Of a DNA stretch of 42,985 bases, positions 10,746 through 39,541 are shown piece after piece. Position 1 is the stretch's first letter; the number at the start of each line of letters is the position of its first letter. The DNA is from Candidatus Vogelbacteria bacterium (GTDB lineage: Bacteria > Patescibacteriota > Minisyncoccia > Phycocordibacterales > XYD1-FULL-46-19). A program made the translations under genes and the position numbers. The stretch lies in NCBI GenBank assembly GCA_903864935.1, contig CAIPHT010000014.1, positions 1 through 42,985 of the forward strand, in the 5' to 3' direction. The notes beneath the pieces were generated by a model. It saw only the letters and a program-made list of their open reading frames with translations. It did not search any database and had not been told where the DNA came from.

Positions 10746-12239
<1,494 letters not shown>

Positions 12240-12383
12240 TTGAACGGTCTTGTCGCAAGATAAGACAATTGGCGATTTCTCTCCTCAAGAGAGAAGCAGG
12301 TGATGATTCTATTTTCACCAATTGAATTCTTTTCGAAGGAATTCAAAGAACAATGAATCTGAGTTCTATCTCATTAATCTAGA

Positions 12384-12406
12384 AGAACGGAACAGAAGAA
12401 AGAATA
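12384..12406 (+). other. 3' arm of the 16S processing stalk
   Basis: Complementary to 10702-10724. Confidence 0.85.
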
Positions 12407-12432
12407 TTTTCTCTGGAGTTAGTTTTGATAAC

Positions 12433-12460
12433 AAAAGAGGCCTTAATAGGGGTCTTTTTT
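12433..12460 (+). terminator. Probable terminator of the 16S-only transcript
   Basis: aaaagaggcc...ggtctttttt stem (two G-U pairs) with a T tract. Confidence 0.6.
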
Positions 12461-12509
12461 GCGTTGTTTTTAAAGCCCTGCCCCGTGGGAGAGAAGCGAC
12501 TCTACGGGG

Positions 12510-12537
12510 TTGACAAAGGCTGTGGTTATGCTATAAT
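12510..12537 (+). promoter_or_regulatory. Consensus sigma70 promoter for orphan gene 12609
   Basis: TTGACA-N16-TATAAT with TGn extension; preceded by the hairpin ccccgt...acgggg (12481-12509). Confidence 0.85.
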
Positions 12538-12608
12538 AGAGGATGGAAGGGTATTAAATGTTCTTAAAACCAGGCTCGCTTAGCGGGCCAAGCAGAAGGA
12601 GAAGAGAG

Positions 12609-12890
12609 ATGAAGAGTTTCCTTAAAGGCCTCGCGGCCTTCGTGGCTTGTTGCGTTGTCTTCGTTGTCCTGGTTGCCGTTCTTGGCGGGCCAGTCCTGGG
12701 CTTTTTCCAGGATGAGCCGGTCATCTATGTCAAAACCTCGACGGGCGAAGCCTTCGAGGCGAAGACCTACGACCGGGAGGGGAAGGAAGTTTGGCATTCG
12801 GCCAGCTGGGCTCGGGCTCACCGAAACGAATGCCGGGCAGAATCCACCGGCAACGGCTATAAGGTCCACTCAGCAGAGTGGGTGGATTGA
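12609..12890 (+). CDS. Small exported or membrane-anchored orphan protein (93 aa)
   Basis: MK plus a hydrophobic N-terminus; AAGGAG at 12596-12601; strong upstream promoter. ATG 12609 preferred over 12558. Confidence 0.6.
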   Translation: MKSFLKGLAAFVACCVVFVVLVAVLGGPVLGFFQDEPVIYVKTSTGEAFEAKTYDREGKEVWHSASWARAHRNECRAESTGNGYKVHSAEWVD

Positions 12891-12906
12891 CTCCTATCTA
12901 CTGACC

Positions 12907-12934
12907 GCCCCTCAGCCTCTCGTGAGGTTGGGGC
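12907..12934 (+). terminator. GC-rich hairpin after gene 12609 (no clear U tract)
   Basis: gcccc(tc)agcctc-tcgt-gaggttggggc. Confidence 0.35.
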
Positions 12935-12996
12935 ATGCGGAACTTCGAGGCGCTCAGTTCGGTTTGTATACCGGGCTGGGCGCTTTATTGTTTAGG

Positions 12997-13025
12997 TTGA
13001 AATTAGAGGCGTTTTTTGATAGGAT
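12997..13025 (+). promoter_or_regulatory. Promoter for the tRNA-Ile locus
   Basis: TTGAAA-N17-TAGGAT with TGn extension. Confidence 0.55.
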
Positions 13026-13106
13026 TTAGATTGTCCCTCCTCGTTCGCCCTGGCGAACTTCGTCGGGACGCTAAATTTTTATAGTCGCTCCGCTTCTTAA
13101 AAATTT

Positions 13107-13164
13107 GCGCGTGTAGCTCAGGCTTGCCCGCCTTAGGCGGGTGAAGTTAGGCGCGTCACTGATA
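13107..13164 (+). pseudogene. Degenerate 5' half of tRNA-Ile with a palindromic insertion in the D-loop
   Basis: First 16 nt are identical to the tRNA, followed by the insert cttgcccgccttaggcgggtgaa, then GTTAG-GCGCGTCACTGATA, ending at position 37. Confidence 0.85.
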
Positions 13165-13226
13165 TAATCAGTATACTGTCGGTTCGCTCGTTGAAAATCA
13201 AAAGATAGGCCCTTAGTGCTTTTGGT

Positions 13227-13303
13227 GCGCGTGTAGCTCAGGTGGTTAGAGCGCGTCACTGATAATGACGAGGTCGTAGGTTCGAGTCCTACCATGCGCA
13301 CCA
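13227..13303 (+). tRNA. tRNA-Ile(GAT) with encoded CCA
   Basis: Full 77-nt cloverleaf: acceptor GCGCGTG/CATGCGC, D stem GCTC/GAGC, anticodon stem CGTCA/TGACG with loop CTGATAA, T arm GTAGG-TTCGAGT-CCTAC, then ACCA. Confidence 0.98.
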
Positions 13304-13346
13304 AGTGCAGTAGGCATATCTTTTGATTTTAACTCGATGCCAACAG

Positions 13347-13385
13347 TAATGACGAGGTCGTAGGTTCGAGTCCTACCATGCGCAC
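13347..13385 (+). repeat. Exact 39-bp copy of the tRNA-Ile 3' half (att-like direct repeat)
   Basis: taatgacgaggtcgtaggttcgagtcctaccatgcgcac is identical to 13263-13301. Confidence 0.95.
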
Positions 13386-13392
13386 TAGGGGG

Positions 13393-13423
13393 AAAACAGT
13401 CTCTGTTTAGGGTACTGTTTTTT
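13393..13423 (+). terminator. Intrinsic terminator after the tRNA locus
   Basis: aaaacagt...actgtttt stem with a T tract. Confidence 0.7.
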
Positions 13424-13425
13424 GT

Positions 13426-13454
13426 TTGACTTAATTAAATATAAGTGGTACTTT
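13426..13454 (+). promoter_or_regulatory. Promoter for orphan gene 13525
   Basis: TTGACT-N17-TACTTT with TGn extension. Confidence 0.65.
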
Positions 13455-13510
13455 CGAAGCAGACTGCTTGTTAGGCTTTGTGGCCTGATAAAAATAGAAT
13501 CCAACCCTTG

Positions 13511-13521
13511 AAGGAGGTGAT
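13511..13521 (+). promoter_or_regulatory. Full-length Shine-Dalgarno sequence
   Basis: AAGGAGGTGAT is the exact complement of the canonical anti-SD AUCACCUCCUU; ATG at 13525. Confidence 0.8.
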
Positions 13522-13524
13522 AAG

Positions 13525-14001
13525 ATGAAGATTGCCATGATTAGCAAAAACAACTTTCTCCCTGGTCGGGGGGAGGGTTGGCCCAGAATTGTTAATGGTC
13601 ACGAAGTTTACCTTATTCAGGGTCGCCCTGAAACTCCCGAGAGTCTTCGTCGAGACATGAGAAGGGCCGCTGATTATCCTCGAGTCAGAAGTGTCGACTC
13701 GAGACTTGAGGCACGTAGAGACTGGGAATCCCTTAGTCGACTCCTTCCCACACTGGATAGAGTGATTGTCTATGTTGGTACCGATGGGTCTGATGAGAAC
13801 ATCGACCTTGCTGCGAAGCATTGCGGTACGAGGGTCCCTGTGACCTTCGTCTTCTGTGATTGTAATCTTGACCTCAAGAAACAGCTTCTTGCGAGTAACG
13901 GATTTGACCGGGAGAAGTTTGTCCTATGTCTTTGCGGCGGGAAGGAGAAGATGGAGGAGATTTACGAAAGGTTCATAGAGACAGGGGAACTCCCTGTCTA
14001 A
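13525..14001 (+). CDS. Orphan alpha/beta protein with two CxC motifs (158 aa)
   Basis: Own promoter, SD and terminator; FVFCDCN and VLCLCGG motifs. Confidence 0.75.
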   Translation: MKIAMISKNNFLPGRGEGWPRIVNGHEVYLIQGRPETPESLRRDMRRAADYPRVRSVDSRLEARRDWESLSRLLPTLDRVIVYVGTDGSDENIDLAAKHCGTRVPVTFVFCDCNLDLKKQLLASNGFDREKFVLCLCGGKEKMEEIYERFIETGELPV

Positions 14002-14044: not shown

Positions 14045-14077
14045 GTCTCTTCGGGGACTTATGCTAGAATGCTTTAT

Positions 14078-17000
14078 ATGGAAATCAAATCTAGATTTGA
14101 ATTTTTTAGACGAGATAATATTACTTATCTTGATAGTGCCGCGACAACTCAAGTTCCTGATCAAGTGATTCGATCAGTGGAACAAGTTTTGCAATACCGA
14201 GGCAACCCAAGTCGTAGCGCTCATTTAGTTTCTCTCCGCAATGAAGAGTTGCTAGCTGAGGCCAGAGCTAATATTGCCAAATTTATTGGGGCTGAAGCTG
14301 AAGAGATCGTTTTCTCTGGTAATGCTACTGGGGCCTTAAATCTAGCTGTTGATTCTATTGCTGATCTGATTAAGAAAGATGACGAGATAATTATCTCCGT
14401 GGCTGAACATAATTCTAATATGTTGCCTTATCTTAAGTTGGTAAAAAGAGGGGCGAATATTCGAATTGTCGGGATCAAAGATGGGGTAGTGAGTCTTGAT
14501 GAAATTAAGAAGACCCTAAACGACAAAACAAAAATTGTCGCCATTGGCCATTGTTCCAATGTTTTGGGCAATATTAATGATGTCGAAGAAATTGGGAAGA
14601 TTGTCAAAGATCATAACAAAGACATTTTTTATTTTATTGATGGGACCCAAGCCGTGGCGCATCTCCCCGTTGACGTGAAGAAAATTCAAGTTGATTTCTA
14701 TGCTTTCTCCAGTCACAAGATGTATGGTCCCGATGGTGTGGGTGTTTTGTTTATTAAAAAAGATATTCATCATTTATTAACTCCTACTCAAGTTGGCGGG
14801 GGGACAGTGAAGAACGTGGCTGTTACTTATGGTCAAGAAAAGGATATTATTTCTCCTGAGTATCATCAATCTCTAATTACGTTAGAAGGGGGGACACCGA
14901 ACACTTCAAATATTATTGGTCTTTCAAGAGCGGTTTATTTTATCCGTTCTCTTGGGTTAGAAAATATCAGGAAGCATGAATTAGAGTTATTAGAATATCT
15001 TATTGAGGGATTAAAGAAGATAGAGGAAGTTATCGTTTTTGGCCCTGAAGATTTTACTAAAAAAATTGGCCTAGCTTCTTTTGGCTTAAAAGACCATTCC
15101 GTAAAAGAGCTCGGTGATTATCTTGGCCGTCAAAAGATTTGTATTCGTTATGGTTCCCATTGCGCTTTTCCTTTGGCCGATAAATTGGGCCAAGAGAGTC
15201 TGCGTATTAGTTTTGGGGCTTATTCTGATATTGAGGACATTGATCGAATATTGGGCGAAATAAAACTCTTTTTTGATAAGAAAAAAGGTCTGATAAAAAA
15301 TCCTAATTTAGAAATTCTTAAGAATAAAATTTATTACAAAAATACTTTTATCACTCAATCGATAGGGTCTATTTTGGATAAATTAAGATCTGCTATATAT
15401 AATCCAGCTGAGACAGAAGTTGTTGTTATGGGTGGTCATTTCTTGGCTATCCCGGACATGCAAGATAATAAATTTTGGCCCAGTATCAAGCCGATGCTAC
15501 CAGAGAGGCTTCATGGTTTACTTGAAGAGTTCGGGATGACTTCTTTCCCCCTATTTTCCTGGGAGATGGCTTGCCAGACTGTGTCGAAACTTAAAGAACA
15601 AGGCGTTAGGGCCAAGCTTCTTATTGTGGCTAACGATACCACTGGGATTAACGAATTGAGACTTTCTAGCGCTAATAAAAATTCTCGGACAGCCGAATCT
15701 TATCGAGATGAATTACTGGCTCTGTTTGCTGGGGATGACGGAATACCCAAAGAATATGTCGAGATCTTAAAGAAATACAAATTAAGCAAAAAGGACCTTA
15801 TTAAAAGTGGTAAGGACTGCTTTATGCGGGAGACTATCTTACGCGCTAATTTCAAGAAATTTATCAGCGGAAATAAGAAATTCTTTGATGGGGTTATAAA
15901 TTATTCGGCCGAGGAAGGGGAGAACATTGATGTCGCTATTAATATTCTTGATAACCAGCAAATAAAGACTTGTAGCTTCCAAACCTTTAATTCTAAGACG
16001 GGAGGAAGATTTTGTATCGCTGAAGTCGCCGAATTGATGGCGGAGCTATTTGGTAAGGCCCCAGATGTTAACTTCGATTTCTTAAAAGAAAAAGTTAAGG
16101 AACCAAAAATTGAAGGCAAACATAAAATTTTTGTCATGTATTCTCCGGCCATGTGTGATAACGCTATCACAAGAGGAGGGGAACTCTACACGAAGGTGTT
16201 TTTGCAAGAAAAAGGTGTGGGTTCCTTTAAATTCTTTAATATACCATTAGGCCCTAATGCTGAGAGAGATCTTGCGATAGGCACTGAGATGAAATATATT
16301 TCAGATAAGGATTCGCTTGAGGTCTTGAATGTTGAGACTGAGCCAAGTTTTGCTGATCTGTGGAAGATTACTGAATATAATCTTCTCTATAATAGTAGCG
16401 CTTATGCTGATGAGGTAGAAAGTGTTTTTGAGAAAATTGGTATCAATAAAAATTCTAAGATATTGGACACTTGTGTCGGCCCTGGCTTTTTCTCGACCGA
16501 ATTACTGCAGCGAGGCTATAATTTAAGTACGGCTGATATTAGCGAAGAGACAATTAAACCATTTTATAAAGGTCTAGAGGAACTTGGGATTGAACATAAA
16601 GTTACCAAGTCTGCTTGGCTAGATTTGCCGAAGAATTATACTAAAGAATCTTTTGATATCCTCTTTAATCGTGGAAACTCGTTTATTTATGCCGCTGGCG
16701 GCTGGAATGAGGAACTTCCTGTAAACAAGGAGAAGTCGTTAGAAATTTTCTCGCAAACCTTGAAGATTTATTATGACTTACTAAAACCAGGAGCTTATCT
16801 CTATATTGATAAGTTTAGAGACTCAGAAATCCCCGACAAAAAAGTTGCGGCCAGACTAGAGATTACGGATTCTAAAGAAGAAAAGGATGTCATGTTTTTA
16901 GTAGAAAGACGCCCTGAAGAAAATACACGTTTTGCCCAATTGTCCTTGCGTGATACCTCTGATAATAAGGAGAAAATGATGTTGACGGGGTTGGTCTATG

Positions 17001-17113
17001 ATCTCAGTGAGGGAGAAATGGAGGATTTGTTAAAGAATGTCGGTTTCAAAAAGGTAGACAAATTAAGTCTTAAAGAAGAAAGGCATTTCGTTGTTTGGTT
17101 GGCGCAAAAATAA
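14078..17113 (+). CDS. Three-domain fusion: group II (SufS/CsdA-like) cysteine desulfurase + unknown domain + class I SAM methyltransferase
   Basis: YLDSAATTQ, EHNSN, DGTQ, SSHKMYGP (PLP Lys) and RYGSHCA (catalytic Cys); C-terminal LDTCVGPG and NRGNSF. ATG 14078 preferred because 14069 overlaps the -10 box TGCTAGAAT. Confidence 0.88.
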   Translation: MEIKSRFEFFRRDNITYLDSAATTQVPDQVIRSVEQVLQYRGNPSRSAHLVSLRNEELLAEARANIAKFIGAEAEEIVFSGNATGALNLAVDSIADLIKKDDEIIISVAEHNSNMLPYLKLVKRGANIRIVGIKDGVVSLDEIKKTLNDKTKIVAIGHCSNVLGNINDVEEIGKIVKDHNKDIFYFIDGTQAVAHLPVDVKKIQVDFYAFSSHKMYGPDGVGVLFIKKDIHHLLTPTQVGGGTVKNVAVTYGQEKDIISPEYHQSLITLEGGTPNTSNIIGLSRAVYFIRSLGLENIRKHELELLEYLIEGLKKIEEVIVFGPEDFTKKIGLASFGLKDHSVKELGDYLGRQKICIRYGSHCAFPLADKLGQESLRISFGAYSDIEDIDRILGEIKLFFDKKKGLIKNPNLEILKNKIYYKNTFITQSIGSILDKLRSAIYNPAETEVVVMGGHFLAIPDMQDNKFWPSIKPMLPERLHGLLEEFGMTSFPLFSWEMACQTVSKLKEQGVRAKLLIVANDTTGINELRLSSANKNSRTAESYRDELLALFAGDDGIPKEYVEILKKYKLSKKDLIKSGKDCFMRETILRANFKKFISGNKKFFDGVINYSAEEGENIDVAINILDNQQIKTCSFQTFNSKTGGRFCIAEVAELMAELFGKAPDVNFDFLKEKVKEPKIEGKHKIFVMYSPAMCDNAITRGGELYTKVFLQEKGVGSFKFFNIPLGPNAERDLAIGTEMKYISDKDSLEVLNVETEPSFADLWKITEYNLLYNSSAYADEVESVFEKIGINKNSKILDTCVGPGFFSTELLQRGYNLSTADISEETIKPFYKGLEELGIEHKVTKSAWLDLPKNYTKESFDILFNRGNSFIYAAGGWNEELPVNKEKSLEIFSQTLKIYYDLLKPGAYLYIDKFRDSEIPDKKVAARLEITDSKEEKDVMFLVERRPEENTRFAQLSLRDTSDNKEKMMLTGLVYDLSEGEMEDLLKNVGFKKVDKLSLKEERHFVVWLAQK

Positions 17114-17131
17114 GAGATTAGACAAATAATT

Positions 17132-17935
17132 TTGGAAGATACAAATAGCAAGAAAATTTTAGAAATACATGCCAACCCAACCTTAGATGAGGTTTGGGAT
17201 TTATGTGTAAGGAATTTCCTTTATGATCAAAAAAAGTATGTGAACGAAGTACTAGAAATTTTTGCTCGACTTGGGATAACCAAAGAATCAAAGATCGCTG
17301 ATGTTAGTGCTGGCGGGGGATTTCCCGCTCTTAATCTTATTGCTTTGGGCTACAAGGTGGATTGTTTTGATGGCTTTGCCACCGACTTATTTGATCAAAA
17401 TGCCAAAAAAGAGGGGCAAGATGTGACATGTAAAAAGGCTCTTTGGGAGGAACTCCCTGAGCTGGTTTCTCCTGGCGAGTATGATTTTGTTTTTTGTCGA
17501 GGCAATTCATTTATTTATGCTGGCGGGGGTTGGTCAGAAACATCCGGTTTTGATATTGAGAAGGTTAGAGCTGATTATATTAAAACGGCCAAAATTTTTG
17601 CCGGGATGTTAAAGGCCGGTGGCTATATGTATATAGATAAATTCAAAGATAGCGAACTTGGGTATAGAGAAAAACTTGCCACAATAAAAGTTGGGAGCAA
17701 CCTTGAGGACTTAGTATTTTTTTCAGAAAGATCCCCTGAAAGTAAGTTAAGAAAGGCTTCTGTCCAAAGAATGGCTGGTGGAGATGTAACTAACTTTGAG
17801 GTAAAAATTACTTATGATCTATCAAAAGAAGAATTAATTAATTTTTTGAAAGAGGGAGGATTTTCTGATGTTGAGGTTATTAATTCTGAGGTCCCCGAAG
17901 AGAAGCATTTTGACGTCTGGTTGGCAAAAAAGTAG
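17132..17935 (+). CDS. Class I SAM-dependent methyltransferase, glycine/sarcosine N-methyltransferase-like; paralog of the upstream C-terminal domain
   Basis: IADVSAGGG motif I and FCRGNSFIYAGGGW; TTG start. Confidence 0.82.
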   Translation: MEDTNSKKILEIHANPTLDEVWDLCVRNFLYDQKKYVNEVLEIFARLGITKESKIADVSAGGGFPALNLIALGYKVDCFDGFATDLFDQNAKKEGQDVTCKKALWEELPELVSPGEYDFVFCRGNSFIYAGGGWSETSGFDIEKVRADYIKTAKIFAGMLKAGGYMYIDKFKDSELGYREKLATIKVGSNLEDLVFFSERSPESKLRKASVQRMAGGDVTNFEVKITYDLSKEELINFLKEGGFSDVEVINSEVPEEKHFDVWLAKK

Positions 17936-22943: not shown

Positions 22944-24665
22944 ATGGCGGAAACTTTAATAAATTATTTTGGACAAACCGATTTTCGCGGCAAGCGACTT
23001 CGCTTTGGTATTAAAGATGAAGACCGGGCCAAGCACGTTTATATTATCGGTAAGACGGGGATGGGTAAGTCGACCTTGCTTGAGAATATGGTCATCCAAG
23101 ATATTAAGAATGGCGAGGGCGTAGCCTTTGTTGATCCTCACGGTAAGTCGGCTGAATTCTTGCTTGATTTTGTCCCGCCGGAGAGAGTAAAAGATGTTAT
23201 TTATTTTGCCCCCTTTGATCTCGAACATCCTATTTCTTTTAATATTATGGAGGATGTGGGGCAAGACAAGCGCCACTTGGTGGCCAACGGCTTGATGTCC
23301 TCGTTTAAGAAAATTTGGCCGGACGTCTGGTCTAGTCGTATGGAGTATATTCTGAACAATTGCCTCTTGGCCCTTCTTGAATACCCTGAGTCAACCCTGC
23401 TTGGTGTCAATCGTTTGCTCTCAGATAAGGCCTACCGTCAGAAGGTGGTGGATAATATTACCGACCCTTCGGTTCGTTCCTTTTGGGTTGACGAATTTGC
23501 TAAATATAATGAACGTTATATGCAGGAAGCGGGGGATGCGATTAAGAATAAGATTGGTCAATTTACCGCTAATCCTTTGATCCGTAATATTATTGGTCAA
23601 CCTAAGTCCACGATTGATTTGCGCCAAGTCATGGATGATAAGAAAATTTTGATTGTGAACTTGTCTAAGGGTCGCCTGGGAGAACAGAATGCTAACCTCT
23701 TGGGGGGCATTCTGATTACGAAGATTTATTTGGCGGCCATGTCGCGAGCGGGAGCTGAATCTAGCGCCTTATCACGTTTGCCCTATTTCTATCTCTTCGT
23801 TGACGAATTCCAATCTTTTGTAAACGAGTCTTTTGCCGATATTTTGTCTGAGGCCCGCAAGTATAAATTAAGTTTAACAATTGCTCATCAGTATATTGAG
23901 CAGATGCCGGAGGAGGTGAGGAATGCTGTCTTTGGCAACGTGGGTACAACCATTGCTTTTAGAGTTGGCCCCTTTGACGCGGAGGTGCTCGAGACAATCT
24001 TCTTCCCCACTTTCACTAAAGAAGATCTGGTTAATCTTGGTTTTGCTCAAATTTATTTAACCTTATCGATTGATGGTGTTGGCTCGCCACCTTTCTCGGC
24101 CACAACCTTGCCACCAATTCAAGTAGTTGGGGAGTCACTTAAAGAACAGATTATCGCCAATGTTAGACGTGTTTATGCCAAGCCTCGAGAAGTGGTTGAG
24201 AAAGAGGTGGTAGATTGGTATATCCCTGAGCCAAGTGCTGGTTCAAATAAAGGAACAAGCTCGACCTCTGGTGGAGGAGGGGCAAGTGCCCCGGCTCGTG
24301 TCAGTACCGGAGGAGGGGCCTCAGCTCCTTCACGAGCCAAGCCGGTTGAAACCACCACTCCTTTGCCAAGTAAGTCTCAGGTTACTGCACCCCTGCCTCC
24401 CAAACCCCTTACTCCATTAACGCCAAAGGAAGCACCCAAATCTTTTTCCTTAGGAATTTTAAATAATAAACCAAAAGATAATAGAAATAAGAATGAATTA
24501 AAGAATTTTTTGGATGAGATTCTGGCCGGTAAAAAAGAAAAGGCTGTCGTTGCTCCGAAGGTTGAGGTTAAACAAATGCCACAAACCCAAGCTCCCGTGC
24601 AAAATCAAGCTCAGAATAGTATGGAAGCGAAACTAAAAGAAATTCTAAAAGTTGACTCCGAGTAA
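22944..24665 (+). CDS. VirD4/TraD-like (HerA/FtsK superfamily) coupling-type ATPase with a low-complexity C-terminal tail
   Basis: HVYIIGKTGMGKST Walker A, FVDPHG, LFVDEFQ Walker B, LSEARKY, AHQY and GNVGT motifs. Confidence 0.88.
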   Translation: MAETLINYFGQTDFRGKRLRFGIKDEDRAKHVYIIGKTGMGKSTLLENMVIQDIKNGEGVAFVDPHGKSAEFLLDFVPPERVKDVIYFAPFDLEHPISFNIMEDVGQDKRHLVANGLMSSFKKIWPDVWSSRMEYILNNCLLALLEYPESTLLGVNRLLSDKAYRQKVVDNITDPSVRSFWVDEFAKYNERYMQEAGDAIKNKIGQFTANPLIRNIIGQPKSTIDLRQVMDDKKILIVNLSKGRLGEQNANLLGGILITKIYLAAMSRAGAESSALSRLPYFYLFVDEFQSFVNESFADILSEARKYKLSLTIAHQYIEQMPEEVRNAVFGNVGTTIAFRVGPFDAEVLETIFFPTFTKEDLVNLGFAQIYLTLSIDGVGSPPFSATTLPPIQVVGESLKEQIIANVRRVYAKPREVVEKEVVDWYIPEPSAGSNKGTSSTSGGGGASAPARVSTGGGASAPSRAKPVETTTPLPSKSQVTAPLPPKPLTPLTPKEAPKSFSLGILNNKPKDNRNKNELKNFLDEILAGKKEKAVVAPKVEVKQMPQTQAPVQNQAQNSMEAKLKEILKVDSE

Positions 24666-39295: not shown

Positions 39296-39541
39296 TTACC
39301 AATTAAGAATTTTATCGGCGACCTTCTTCTTTGTTTTTAGGTATTTGTCGATTGCTTTTTCTTCAAGCTCTGGTGAGACTAAGCGGAGGATTTCTTTTCC
39401 CATAATGCGATATTGTCCGCCAATTTTGTTGGCCCGGATGGCTCCATTTTTGAGTAAGCGCTTAATTGTGCTTTCACTAATGCGGAGCACCTTTTGGGTC
39501 TCAGTGGTTGTATAGACGGCGAGAGGTTTAATTTCTTCCAT
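39296..39541 (-). CDS. Small helix-turn-helix DNA-binding protein (excisionase/HTH_17-like)
   Basis: YTTTETQKVLRISESTIKRLLKNGAIRANKIGGQYRI motif. Confidence 0.85.
   Translation of the reverse strand: MEEIKPLAVYTTTETQKVLRISESTIKRLLKNGAIRANKIGGQYRIMGKEILRLVSPELEEKAIDKYLKTKKKVADKILNW

Follow-up and report, generated by a model that had tools for sequence, protein, structure and literature searches.

A tRNA-Ile gene nested within the split halves of an older copy: a probable tRNA-replacement cassette recurring in Candidate Phyla Radiation bacteria

How does an intact tRNA gene come to lie between the two halves of another copy of itself? The question is raised by a tRNA-Ile locus on contig CAIPHT010000014.1 (assembly GCA_903864935.1) of a Candidatus Vogelbacteria bacterium from the Patescibacteria or Candidate Phyla Radiation (CPR), of which the whole stretch of 42,985 nucleotides was analysed (hereafter the window). 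An earlier note, made from the sequence alone, had described a tRNA-Ile nested between its own 5' and 3' halves, both broken at the anticodon loop, and its coordinates for the halves, the spacers, the intact tRNA, the inverted repeat and the TA overlap were all confirmed. Our analysis indicates that a resident tRNA-Ile(GAU) gene was probably split, within the anticodon loop, by a small non-coding cassette that nests in itself and replaces the tRNA it disrupts. The cassette itself is a complete tRNA-Ile gene between two mutually complementary arms.

The inner gene (13227-13303) was identified as tRNA-Ile(GAT) by ARAGORN and matched the Rfam tRNA family with 72.2 bits (E = 5e-14). Its segment 13263-13301, starting at T36, is repeated at 13347-13385 with 39 of 39 nucleotides identical. 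On the 5' side, 13106-13122 agrees with 13226-13242 at 17 of 17 positions (the first 16 tRNA nucleotides and the preceding T), and the 14 nt GCGCGTCACTGATA at 13251-13264 recur at 13151-13164 (14/14). Repeats of these lengths are far beyond chance in 43 kb. The 5' half, which had been described as running to A37, thus stands by these matches but is not clean, since alignment to the inner tRNA revealed an inserted 24-nt hairpin and, beside it, one missing base of the D stem. The claim that the halves would rejoin into a tRNA upon removal of 184 nt did not hold, as ARAGORN found no tRNA in the joined outer halves unless the hairpin was removed too. A 90-nt ‘tRNA-Stop(tta)’ reported by the same program at 13296-13385 is a false call composed of the right arm and the outer 3' half. 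Because TA is found at both cassette junctions, the positions 35/36, 36/37 and 37/38 are indistinguishable as junctions in the window. The inverted repeat ACTGAT-ATA-ATCAGT occupies 13158-13172.

The cassette between the halves (13165-13346) is 182 nt long and non-coding, and its arms together account for ~105 nt. They are complementary over ~45 bp, the left arm beginning ~9 nt inside the left cassette end. Inverted repeats and the RNA fold pair the two left-arm helix strands, 13174-13186 and 13190-13211, with 13335-13348 and 13313-13333, respectively. A conserved TTCGCTCG motif lies at 13183-13190 on the left and a conserved CTCGATG motif at 13333-13339 on the right. Folding of the 326 nt from 13100 to 13425 gave -134 kcal/mol (z = -6.9) and a structure consisting of the outer acceptor stem and T arm, a long helix and the inner cloverleaf. 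Here, the outer acceptor strand of the 5' half pairs with 13377-13383, the left-arm sequence ATCAGT (13167-13172) with the outer anticodon loop, and the leader 13214-13226 with the 3' ACCA end of the inner tRNA. Such pairing is characteristic of the nested layout: a leader-trailer helix with z < -3 was found in 67% of nested vs 6% of simple loci, and the window scores z = -8.4. The arms had no match to any family in an Rfam scan, either at the gathering thresholds or at E ≤ 10.

Table 1. Coordinates of the nested tRNA-Ile locus and of the signals around it, as positions in the window.
Feature	Positions	Strand	Evidence
Promoter-like site, TTGAAA-17-TAGGAT with TG extension	12997..13025	+	consensus scan, 9/12 match
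Outer 5' half (positions 1-37) of the older tRNA-Ile(GAU), a pseudogene fragment	13107..13164	+	identity to inner tRNA, fold
GC-rich 24-nt hairpin CTTGCCCGCC-TTA-GGCGGGTGAAG in the D loop of the outer 5' half	13123..13146	+	alignment to inner tRNA
Left cassette arm, 62 nt	13165..13226	+	fold, family W alignment and covariation
Inner intact tRNA-Ile(GAU) with encoded CCA, presumed functional	13227..13303	+	ARAGORN, Rfam
Right cassette arm, 43 nt, complementary to the left arm	13304..13346	+	inverted repeats, fold, family W covariation
Outer 3' half of the older tRNA-Ile (T36 to C74)	13347..13385	+	39/39 direct repeat of inner copy
Terminator-like AT-rich hairpin AAAACAGT...ACTGTTTT with T run	13393..13423	+	fold

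Are the arms maintained as a helix? The window locus (WIN) was aligned with loci from four other CPR lineages (L073, L140, L162 and L203), with which it forms family W. All are split at the tRNA-Ile anticodon loop, the left junction reading CTGATA followed by T, and the right one TGCC(N4-6) followed by (A)TAATGACG. The members share the motifs TTCG(C/T)TCG on the left and CTC(R)(M)TGCC on the right (13183-13190 and 13333-13342 in the window). These motifs lie between covarying helices that continue into the inner acceptor stem. The sequences of the central helices are unrelated and yet all complementary, so that 91.7% of the cells of the five-sequence alignment are paired. Compensatory changes were found in 34 of 70 pairs, compared with 14.0 ± 2.6 after shuffling (reached in 0 of 500 shuffles) and 6-12 with slid partners. 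These results demonstrate that the arms are selected for pairing. Since the acceptor and T stems of the tRNA differ among the five lineages, the arms are either older than these differences or have hopped between lineages.

Evidence for insertion comes from a pair of loci of a related cassette family, with flanks that are 86-93% identical. In a Paceibacterota genome (L064) the site holds a plain tRNA-Ile, while in a metagenome contig (L232) the identical tRNA is split exactly between A35 and T36 by 250 nt, and no base at the site is duplicated or missing. Two nested copies of one cassette (CCCGCCCGCC..., tRNA-Ile, ...GGGCGAGG) make up the insert, the tRNA of the first being itself split by the second at the same point. 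The cassette tRNA-Ile is a different allele, with acceptor and T stems unlike those of the resident gene. Accordingly, in at least one documented case the cassette was gained by insertion. The same insertion point and similar ends (CCCGCCTGCC...GGCGGGCAGG) were found in L112, L048 and L103 around different tRNA alleles, and in both L232 and L045 the joined outer halves and the inner gene are valid, distinct tRNA-Ile genes. Within family W, the outer D and anticodon stems of L073 differ from the inner ones and still pair with each other, as would be expected if a resident allele had been invaded by a foreign cassette.

Layering is not confined to this pair, as at least two layers were seen in at least 5 loci. 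The L135 group has three, with acceptor stems that differ stepwise. Its outer T arm is divergent in L151, chimeric in L167 and like the inner one in L135, which shows that the layers recombine. The idea, raised in the earlier note, that a minimal element carrying a tRNA had entered the ancestral tRNA was thus in essence supported by the wide recurrence in CPR bacteria described below, the L064/L232 pair, the differing alleles and the re-insertion into the cassette's own tRNA.

How widespread is this arrangement? An unbiased sample was obtained by scanning one genome per species for the tRNA-Ile anticodon arm, which gave 120 loci, mostly from CPR bacteria, 112 of them with usable flanks. Nine of these 112 were fully nested, with both halves around an intact tRNA-Ile (L112, L048, L103, L018, L056, L045, L070, L107 and L099), and ~10 more were half-nested, with one half only. 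The nested layout hence occurs in ~8-17% of the sampled CPR/Patescibacteria tRNA-Ile loci. None was nested among the sampled contigs labelled Actinomycetes, Acidimicrobiaceae, Planctomycetota and similar, while three nested or half-nested contigs (L018, L112 and L123) bear non-CPR labels, which were taken as given. A second scan, of metagenomes, used a pattern of the anticodon arm, 45-75 nt and the start of a second 3' half. It returned 104 contigs. In 101 of them a 3' half comes after an intact tRNA, and in 32 distinct ones the 5' half is clear as well.

In every locus the halves resemble the tRNA of their own lineage, and the break is always in the anticodon loop. The 5' half ends mostly at G34 (14 cases) or A35 (9 cases), and the 3' half starts mostly at T36 (40), A35 (18) or C32 (13). 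The inserts are compact throughout, ~100-250 nt, and in more than 100 loci the arms directly adjoin the tRNA at either end.

Other tRNA genes show related features. Genes for tRNA-Ala, Val, Phe, Pro, Leu and Lys are sometimes flanked by their own fragments, some of which are plain tandem duplications. Leader-trailer helices equally strong as those of tRNA-Ile surround tRNA-Phe (L204, L156 and L120) and tRNA-Pro (L094 and L204), tRNA-Phe also being accompanied by its own fragments and by CCTGCCCGCC arms. The cassette phenomenon therefore probably extends beyond tRNA-Ile. In L120 (3680-4400), tRNA-Val is present as three tandem copies, and the T loop of two of these holds a 30-nt double hairpin; in L015 (2240-2490), tRNA-Ala is preceded by an 86-nt unit in two identical copies, each made up of 17 nt from the start of tRNA-Ala and a hairpin; and tandem tRNA-Ile copies are present in L104 and L157. 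A contig classed as viral in IMG/VR (L237, locus at 12413-12545) carries tRNA-Lys, tRNA-Ile and tRNA-Ala, and downstream of its tRNA-Ile the sequence ...GCGGGGTAAGC leads into a 3' half that belongs to another tRNA-Ile allele. Either a CPR contig was wrongly classed as viral, or a phage may have acquired such a locus.

What has become of the outer halves? Across the 32 distinct loci, 22 single changes between the outer and the inner copy break a base pair and 11 keep it, whereas 11 double changes are compensated and 1 is broken. Unpaired outer positions were changed in 19 of 817 cases, and the rates in stems and loops are equal. Moreover, the outer halves contain 15 clean hairpin insertions of 13-63 nt, spread over positions 8-61 and over stems and loops alike, and are truncated in places. 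Since pairs are broken at equal rates in stems and loops and hairpins have been inserted, the sequences indicate that the outer halves decay like pseudogenes and are relics. The compensated double changes are explained by the inner and outer copies having once been separate functional alleles. Selection on the outer halves was considered as their cause and set aside, because the 11-vs-1 ratio is equally expected from changes in the inner copy or from foreign alleles.

In view of this decay, the notion that the 3' half is under selection as a landing pad is not supported. Its perfect identity is more readily accounted for by a recent event, or else by recombination with the inner copy, as illustrated by the chimeric T arm of L167.

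Many of the hairpins in the outer halves belong to a GC palindrome of the type CCYGCCYGCC/GGCRGGCRGG. This palindrome is over-represented, with 100 matches in 1.45 Mb, 70% of them at most 250 nt from a tRNA, a zone that makes up 12.7% of the sequence. The D-loop hairpin of the window is of this type, and no other CCGCC-N3-9-GGCGG site occurs in the 43 kb. Free-standing palindromes CCTGCCTGCC-GGCAGGCAGG occur in L052 (1743-1772, 2521 and 3276), L142 (12195), L106 (4304) and L200 (5139); recurring in AT-rich CPR contigs, they look like a family of repeats resembling repetitive extragenic palindromic (REP) sequences that spans lineages. Their motif is also found at the ends of many tRNA cassettes and in the ‘empty’ hairpins inside outer halves.

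The earlier note had placed the whole unit between one promoter and one terminator. For the first part, the consensus scan gave the 9/12 match at 12997-13025, with no better plus-strand promoter between this site and the inner tRNA. It is presumed to be the promoter of the resident tRNA gene, now driving the whole unit. Downstream, the hairpin and T run at 13393-13423, presumably the terminator of the resident gene, are visible in the fold only, and the terminator scan gave no call there. Sequence inspection revealed a hairpin and T run downstream of the outer 3' half in L112 and L070 as well.

We propose the following course of events. The resident gene would be dead, and its promoter and terminator would now delimit a single transcript running through the two outer halves, both arms and the tRNA between them. 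Pairing of the arms would lengthen the inner acceptor stem by a helix of ~45 bp. This helix would prevent the inner tRNA from mispairing with the outer halves, which are identical to it, and would make it accessible for release; an RNase III-type cut would probably come first, with RNase P and trimming of the 3' end completing the maturation. In this way the inner gene would provide the cell with tRNA-Ile(GAU). Meanwhile, the outer halves would decay, as suggested in the window by the 24-nt D-loop hairpin and the 1-nt deletion, although recombination with the inner copy could make the sequences uniform again. Either such recombination or a recent origin may account for the 39/39 identity.

For the insertion itself there are three candidates. 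A break in the anticodon-coding DNA may have been repaired from a cassette-bearing template, either incoming DNA or, in cis, an outer split copy, which would add a layer; a hairpin-like element may have been transposed by an enzyme encoded elsewhere; or the site may have been copied from a cassette-bearing allele. Our confidence in any specific insertion mechanism is low, while it is moderate to high in the description as a recurrent, inserted, self-nesting tRNA-replacement cassette. Open reading frames (ORFs) for GIY-YIG and LAGLIDADG proteins were considered as a linked enzyme and rejected: they lie near ~17 loci each, none of them in the window, and have no clear tie to nesting. Both types are found within a few kb of tRNA-Ile, the GIY-YIG ORFs (~100 aa), e.g., in L136/L192, L227 and L190, and the LAGLIDADG homing-endonuclease ORFs, which are probably located in rRNA introns, e.g., in L225, L037, L236 and L232.

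Several points weigh against the replacement cassette as the explanation. Neither an insertion enzyme nor an intermediate was identified, and the transcription and processing of the unit are deduced from its sequence. Junction positions and overlaps vary by family, so that several mechanisms may be at work. There is no empty site at hand for the window lineage or for family W, whose mobility is suggested by the outer tRNA of L073 and by analogy with the CCCGCC family of cassettes. In the window, the inner and outer sequences are the same, so that this locus taken alone is compatible with a local origin. Arm mismatches in 56 loci comprised 41 G-U vs 28 A-C, a difference that is not significant as a sign of selection on RNA rather than DNA. 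Finally, the metagenome sample is biased, as its search pattern required a 3' half.

Could the locus instead be the scar of an integrase? According to this explanation, one or more integrative elements or phages, one of them carrying tRNA-Ile as in tRNA-dependent lysogeny, crossed over in the anticodon loop to give attL and attR, and the element bodies were later deleted, so that the tRNA and short remnants stayed behind. The anticodon loop is indeed a classic crossover site, and some junctions have overlaps of 2-3 nt (TA in the window, ATA in three family W relatives and CTG in the L135 type). An integrase, however, would have left a core of at least ~7 bp at both junctions, while the window overlap is only TA and the overlap in the CCCGCC family, to which the clean L232 insertion without a common core belongs, is 0 nt. 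By eye, the family W arm ends resemble tRNA pieces, namely GGTTCG, placed at the offset of the T loop, and TCACTG, just ahead of the right junction, but this likeness to the tRNA halves was not significant in permutation tests (p = 0.05-0.98), and the arms covary as a helix.

Some phages do interrupt a tRNA gene of their host and supply a replacement of the same isotype (PMC10865867), but the tRNA arm was found on only 2 viral contigs, and a scan with 14-mer junction sequences produced only chance matches, in GC-rich phages. Pfam scans detected no integrase, recombinase or transposase domain among the 38 window ORFs scanned, and no kb-scale element lies between distant halves within the fetched loci. 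Deletion of kb-scale elements at random, moreover, would not have left uniformly compact inserts with arms abutting the tRNA in more than 100 loci. Taken together, these results make an integrase scar unlikely, and neither the tyrosine-integrase mechanism nor the successive integration and excision raised in the earlier note is supported.

Local duplication and decay appears less likely still. Here, tRNA-Ile would have been duplicated or triplicated in tandem, the first copy would have lost its 3' part and the last copy its 5' part through decay, and gene conversion would have kept the remainder like the middle copy. Plain tandem partial duplications with one breakpoint inside the tRNA do occur (L014, L015, L104 and L120), recombination between layers is visible in the T arm of L167, and the inner and outer sequences of the window are identical. 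Yet dozens of lineages would each have had to undergo complementary decay that stopped in the anticodon loop, and the L064/L232 pair shows a foreign allele inserted into an otherwise identical tRNA. The outer tRNAs of L045, L232 and L073 are distinct and internally compensated, the motifs and pairing of the arms are conserved across lineages, and the arms have no significant homology to the tRNA halves.

The idea that the whole nested RNA is functional, with the outer halves acting as exons or as a tRNA-shaped scaffold around an intron-like insert that would be excised, and either being ligated into a second tRNA-Ile or having a role in processing, stability or regulation, is of lower probability again. 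The stable fold of outer cloverleaf, long helix and inner tRNA (z = -6.9), the position of the insert, which coincides with the canonical anticodon-loop intron region or lies close to it, and a U-G pair that is invariant in 5 of 5 family W members are in line with it, and freshly invaded outer halves would still give a valid tRNA. The broken pairs, hairpin insertions and truncations of the outer halves and the failure of the joined halves of the window in ARAGORN argue for relics instead. An Rfam scan of 12200-13600 yielded no group I intron or ribozyme family down to E = 10, and inspection of the fold and the family consensus disclosed no bulge-helix-bulge (BHB) at the junctions. A BHB intron was rejected since the 3-4-3 motif is absent, the 5' junction lying in a loop of ~15 nt and the 3' junction inside a helix. 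An assembly artefact from repeats, which the start of contig L004 inside the repeat might suggest and which the earlier note had named as what would refute it, is practically excluded by the same layout in more than 100 unrelated contigs and by six independent assemblies from different samples (with k141_ and scaffold_ naming styles) that span the locus and are 100% identical over 1.1-1.7 kb.

The neighbours of the locus are housekeeping and cell-envelope genes. A lone 16S rRNA gene occupies 10746-12239, no 23S or 5S rRNA gene is present in the 43-kb window, and the tRNA-Ile locus starts 870 nt downstream. Between the two, a small membrane-protein ORF (12610-12890) has its own perfect promoter (TTGACA-16-TATAAT, 12510-12537) and its own terminator (12947-12986). 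Directly 3' of the locus, a 158-aa ORF (13525-14001) is an orphan without a Pfam domain, matching only itself among 5.8 billion proteins; it is identical on 12 other contigs from several samples, six of which span the locus. It is followed at 14069-17935 by a 1014-aa protein in which a class V aminotransferase (cysteine desulfurase-like) is fused to a methyltransferase, and then by a 267-aa ORF with a C-terminus like that of the fusion. The fusion is kept at 45-81% identity in many CPR contigs and in some labelled DPANN archaea, and homologues of the 1014-aa protein carry Parcubacteria or Pacebacteria labels. The route to related loci through synteny with this gene was dropped, as the contigs with homologues had no tRNA-Ile upstream. 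Further away, the window encodes a TraG/VirD4-like coupling protein (22944-24665) and, far from the tRNA-Ile locus, an 80-aa HTH_17 (excisionase-type) ORF (39296-39541); the region 24.6-43 kb is mostly a cluster of glycosyltransferase, methyltransferase and polysaccharide genes.

Beyond the replacement cassette as a description of the locus, we are evenly balanced on whether such cassettes constitute an undescribed class of protein-less, self-nesting mobile element, a ‘selfish tRNA gene’. Such an element would home to the anticodon loop of its cognate tRNA, kill and replace the gene, and move between CPR lineages. It would insert via an unrecognised enzyme or repair pathway acting on hairpin-forming tRNA-gene DNA, or possibly on RNA, and its arms would be a new processing signal that frees the tRNA from a tRNA-like precursor.

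If this is true, a core translation gene in a vast bacterial radiation has been repeatedly overwritten by a minimal element whose sole cargo is a functioning copy of its own target, which would amount to genetic addiction without any protein gene. It would represent a new kind of mobile element and a new horizontal route for tRNA alleles, with the stacked outer halves as a layered record of past alleles. The scarless, site-specific insertion in L232 points to an enzyme or repair route, and the arm helix may be a way for organisms with a reduced set of RNases to free tRNAs from long precursors. The findings also bear on annotation, as tRNA finders mis-call the halves, and half-tRNAs beside tRNA genes are routinely taken for integrase att sites.

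Is the cassette, then, a variant of something known? Our search of the full-text literature, which was limited and is no proof of absence, returned no description of CPR tRNA genes nested in their own halves. For tyrosine integrases, the anticodon loop of tRNA genes is a classic attB site, and upon integration the gene is restored while only one part of it, as a rule the 3' one, becomes duplicated around a kb-scale element. The target and the partial tRNA copies at the borders are alike, whereas here the two halves lie ~180 nt apart and enclose the rebuilt gene. Group I introns likewise sit in the anticodon loop of bacterial tRNAs, e.g., tRNA-Leu(UAA) and the tRNA-Ile of Azoarcus. They resemble the cassettes in precise anticodon-loop insertion, horizontal spread and nesting (twintrons), but the cassettes have no ribozyme core, arms of only ~105 nt, decaying exons and a tRNA instead of a homing endonuclease as cargo. 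REP/REPIN elements and miniature inverted-repeat transposable elements are short, non-coding, hairpin-forming and non-autonomous. Terminal inverted repeats and related ‘empty’ GC hairpins near tRNA genes recall such elements; in contrast to them, the cassettes carry a presumably functional gene, target the cognate anticodon loop, show no consistent target-site duplication, and have no RAYT or transposase linked to them. The 43-kb window contains a single copy.

Two further comparisons concern interrupted RNA genes. The rRNA genes of CPR bacteria commonly hold short non-intron insertions, in an account that does not mention tRNA (PMC11270868). These rRNA intervening sequences are also helical inserts in structural RNA genes, common in CPR bacteria and thought to be cut by RNase III without religation; however, a fragmented rRNA works while a tRNA cut at the anticodon would not, and here a replacement tRNA is contained in the insert. 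Disrupted tRNA genes of archaea comprise BHB introns and split and permuted tRNAs, and their introns appear to transpose (PMC4090602, PMC3978253). A long helix beside the anticodon stem joins two halves in both cases, but in ours there is no BHB, the host is bacterial, the halves are apparently non-functional, and a complete tRNA lies inside.

The closest functional analogue is the tRNA-dependent lysogeny of actinobacteriophages, in which an essential tRNA gene of the host is interrupted by the incoming element and not restored (Guerrero-Bustamante & Hatfull 2024, PMC10865867). Likewise, the tRNA of the window is disrupted, its halves are not completed by the arms, and an intact tRNA-Ile(GAT) is provided inside. 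The elements of that system are complete temperate phages that use a tyrosine integrase and a ~10-bp common core (PMC10865867), whereas here we find a non-coding cassette of 100-250 nt with complementary arms, self-nesting and no phage genes between the halves. None of the families compared has all of its defining features in the cassette, and we rate it as a new kind of element.

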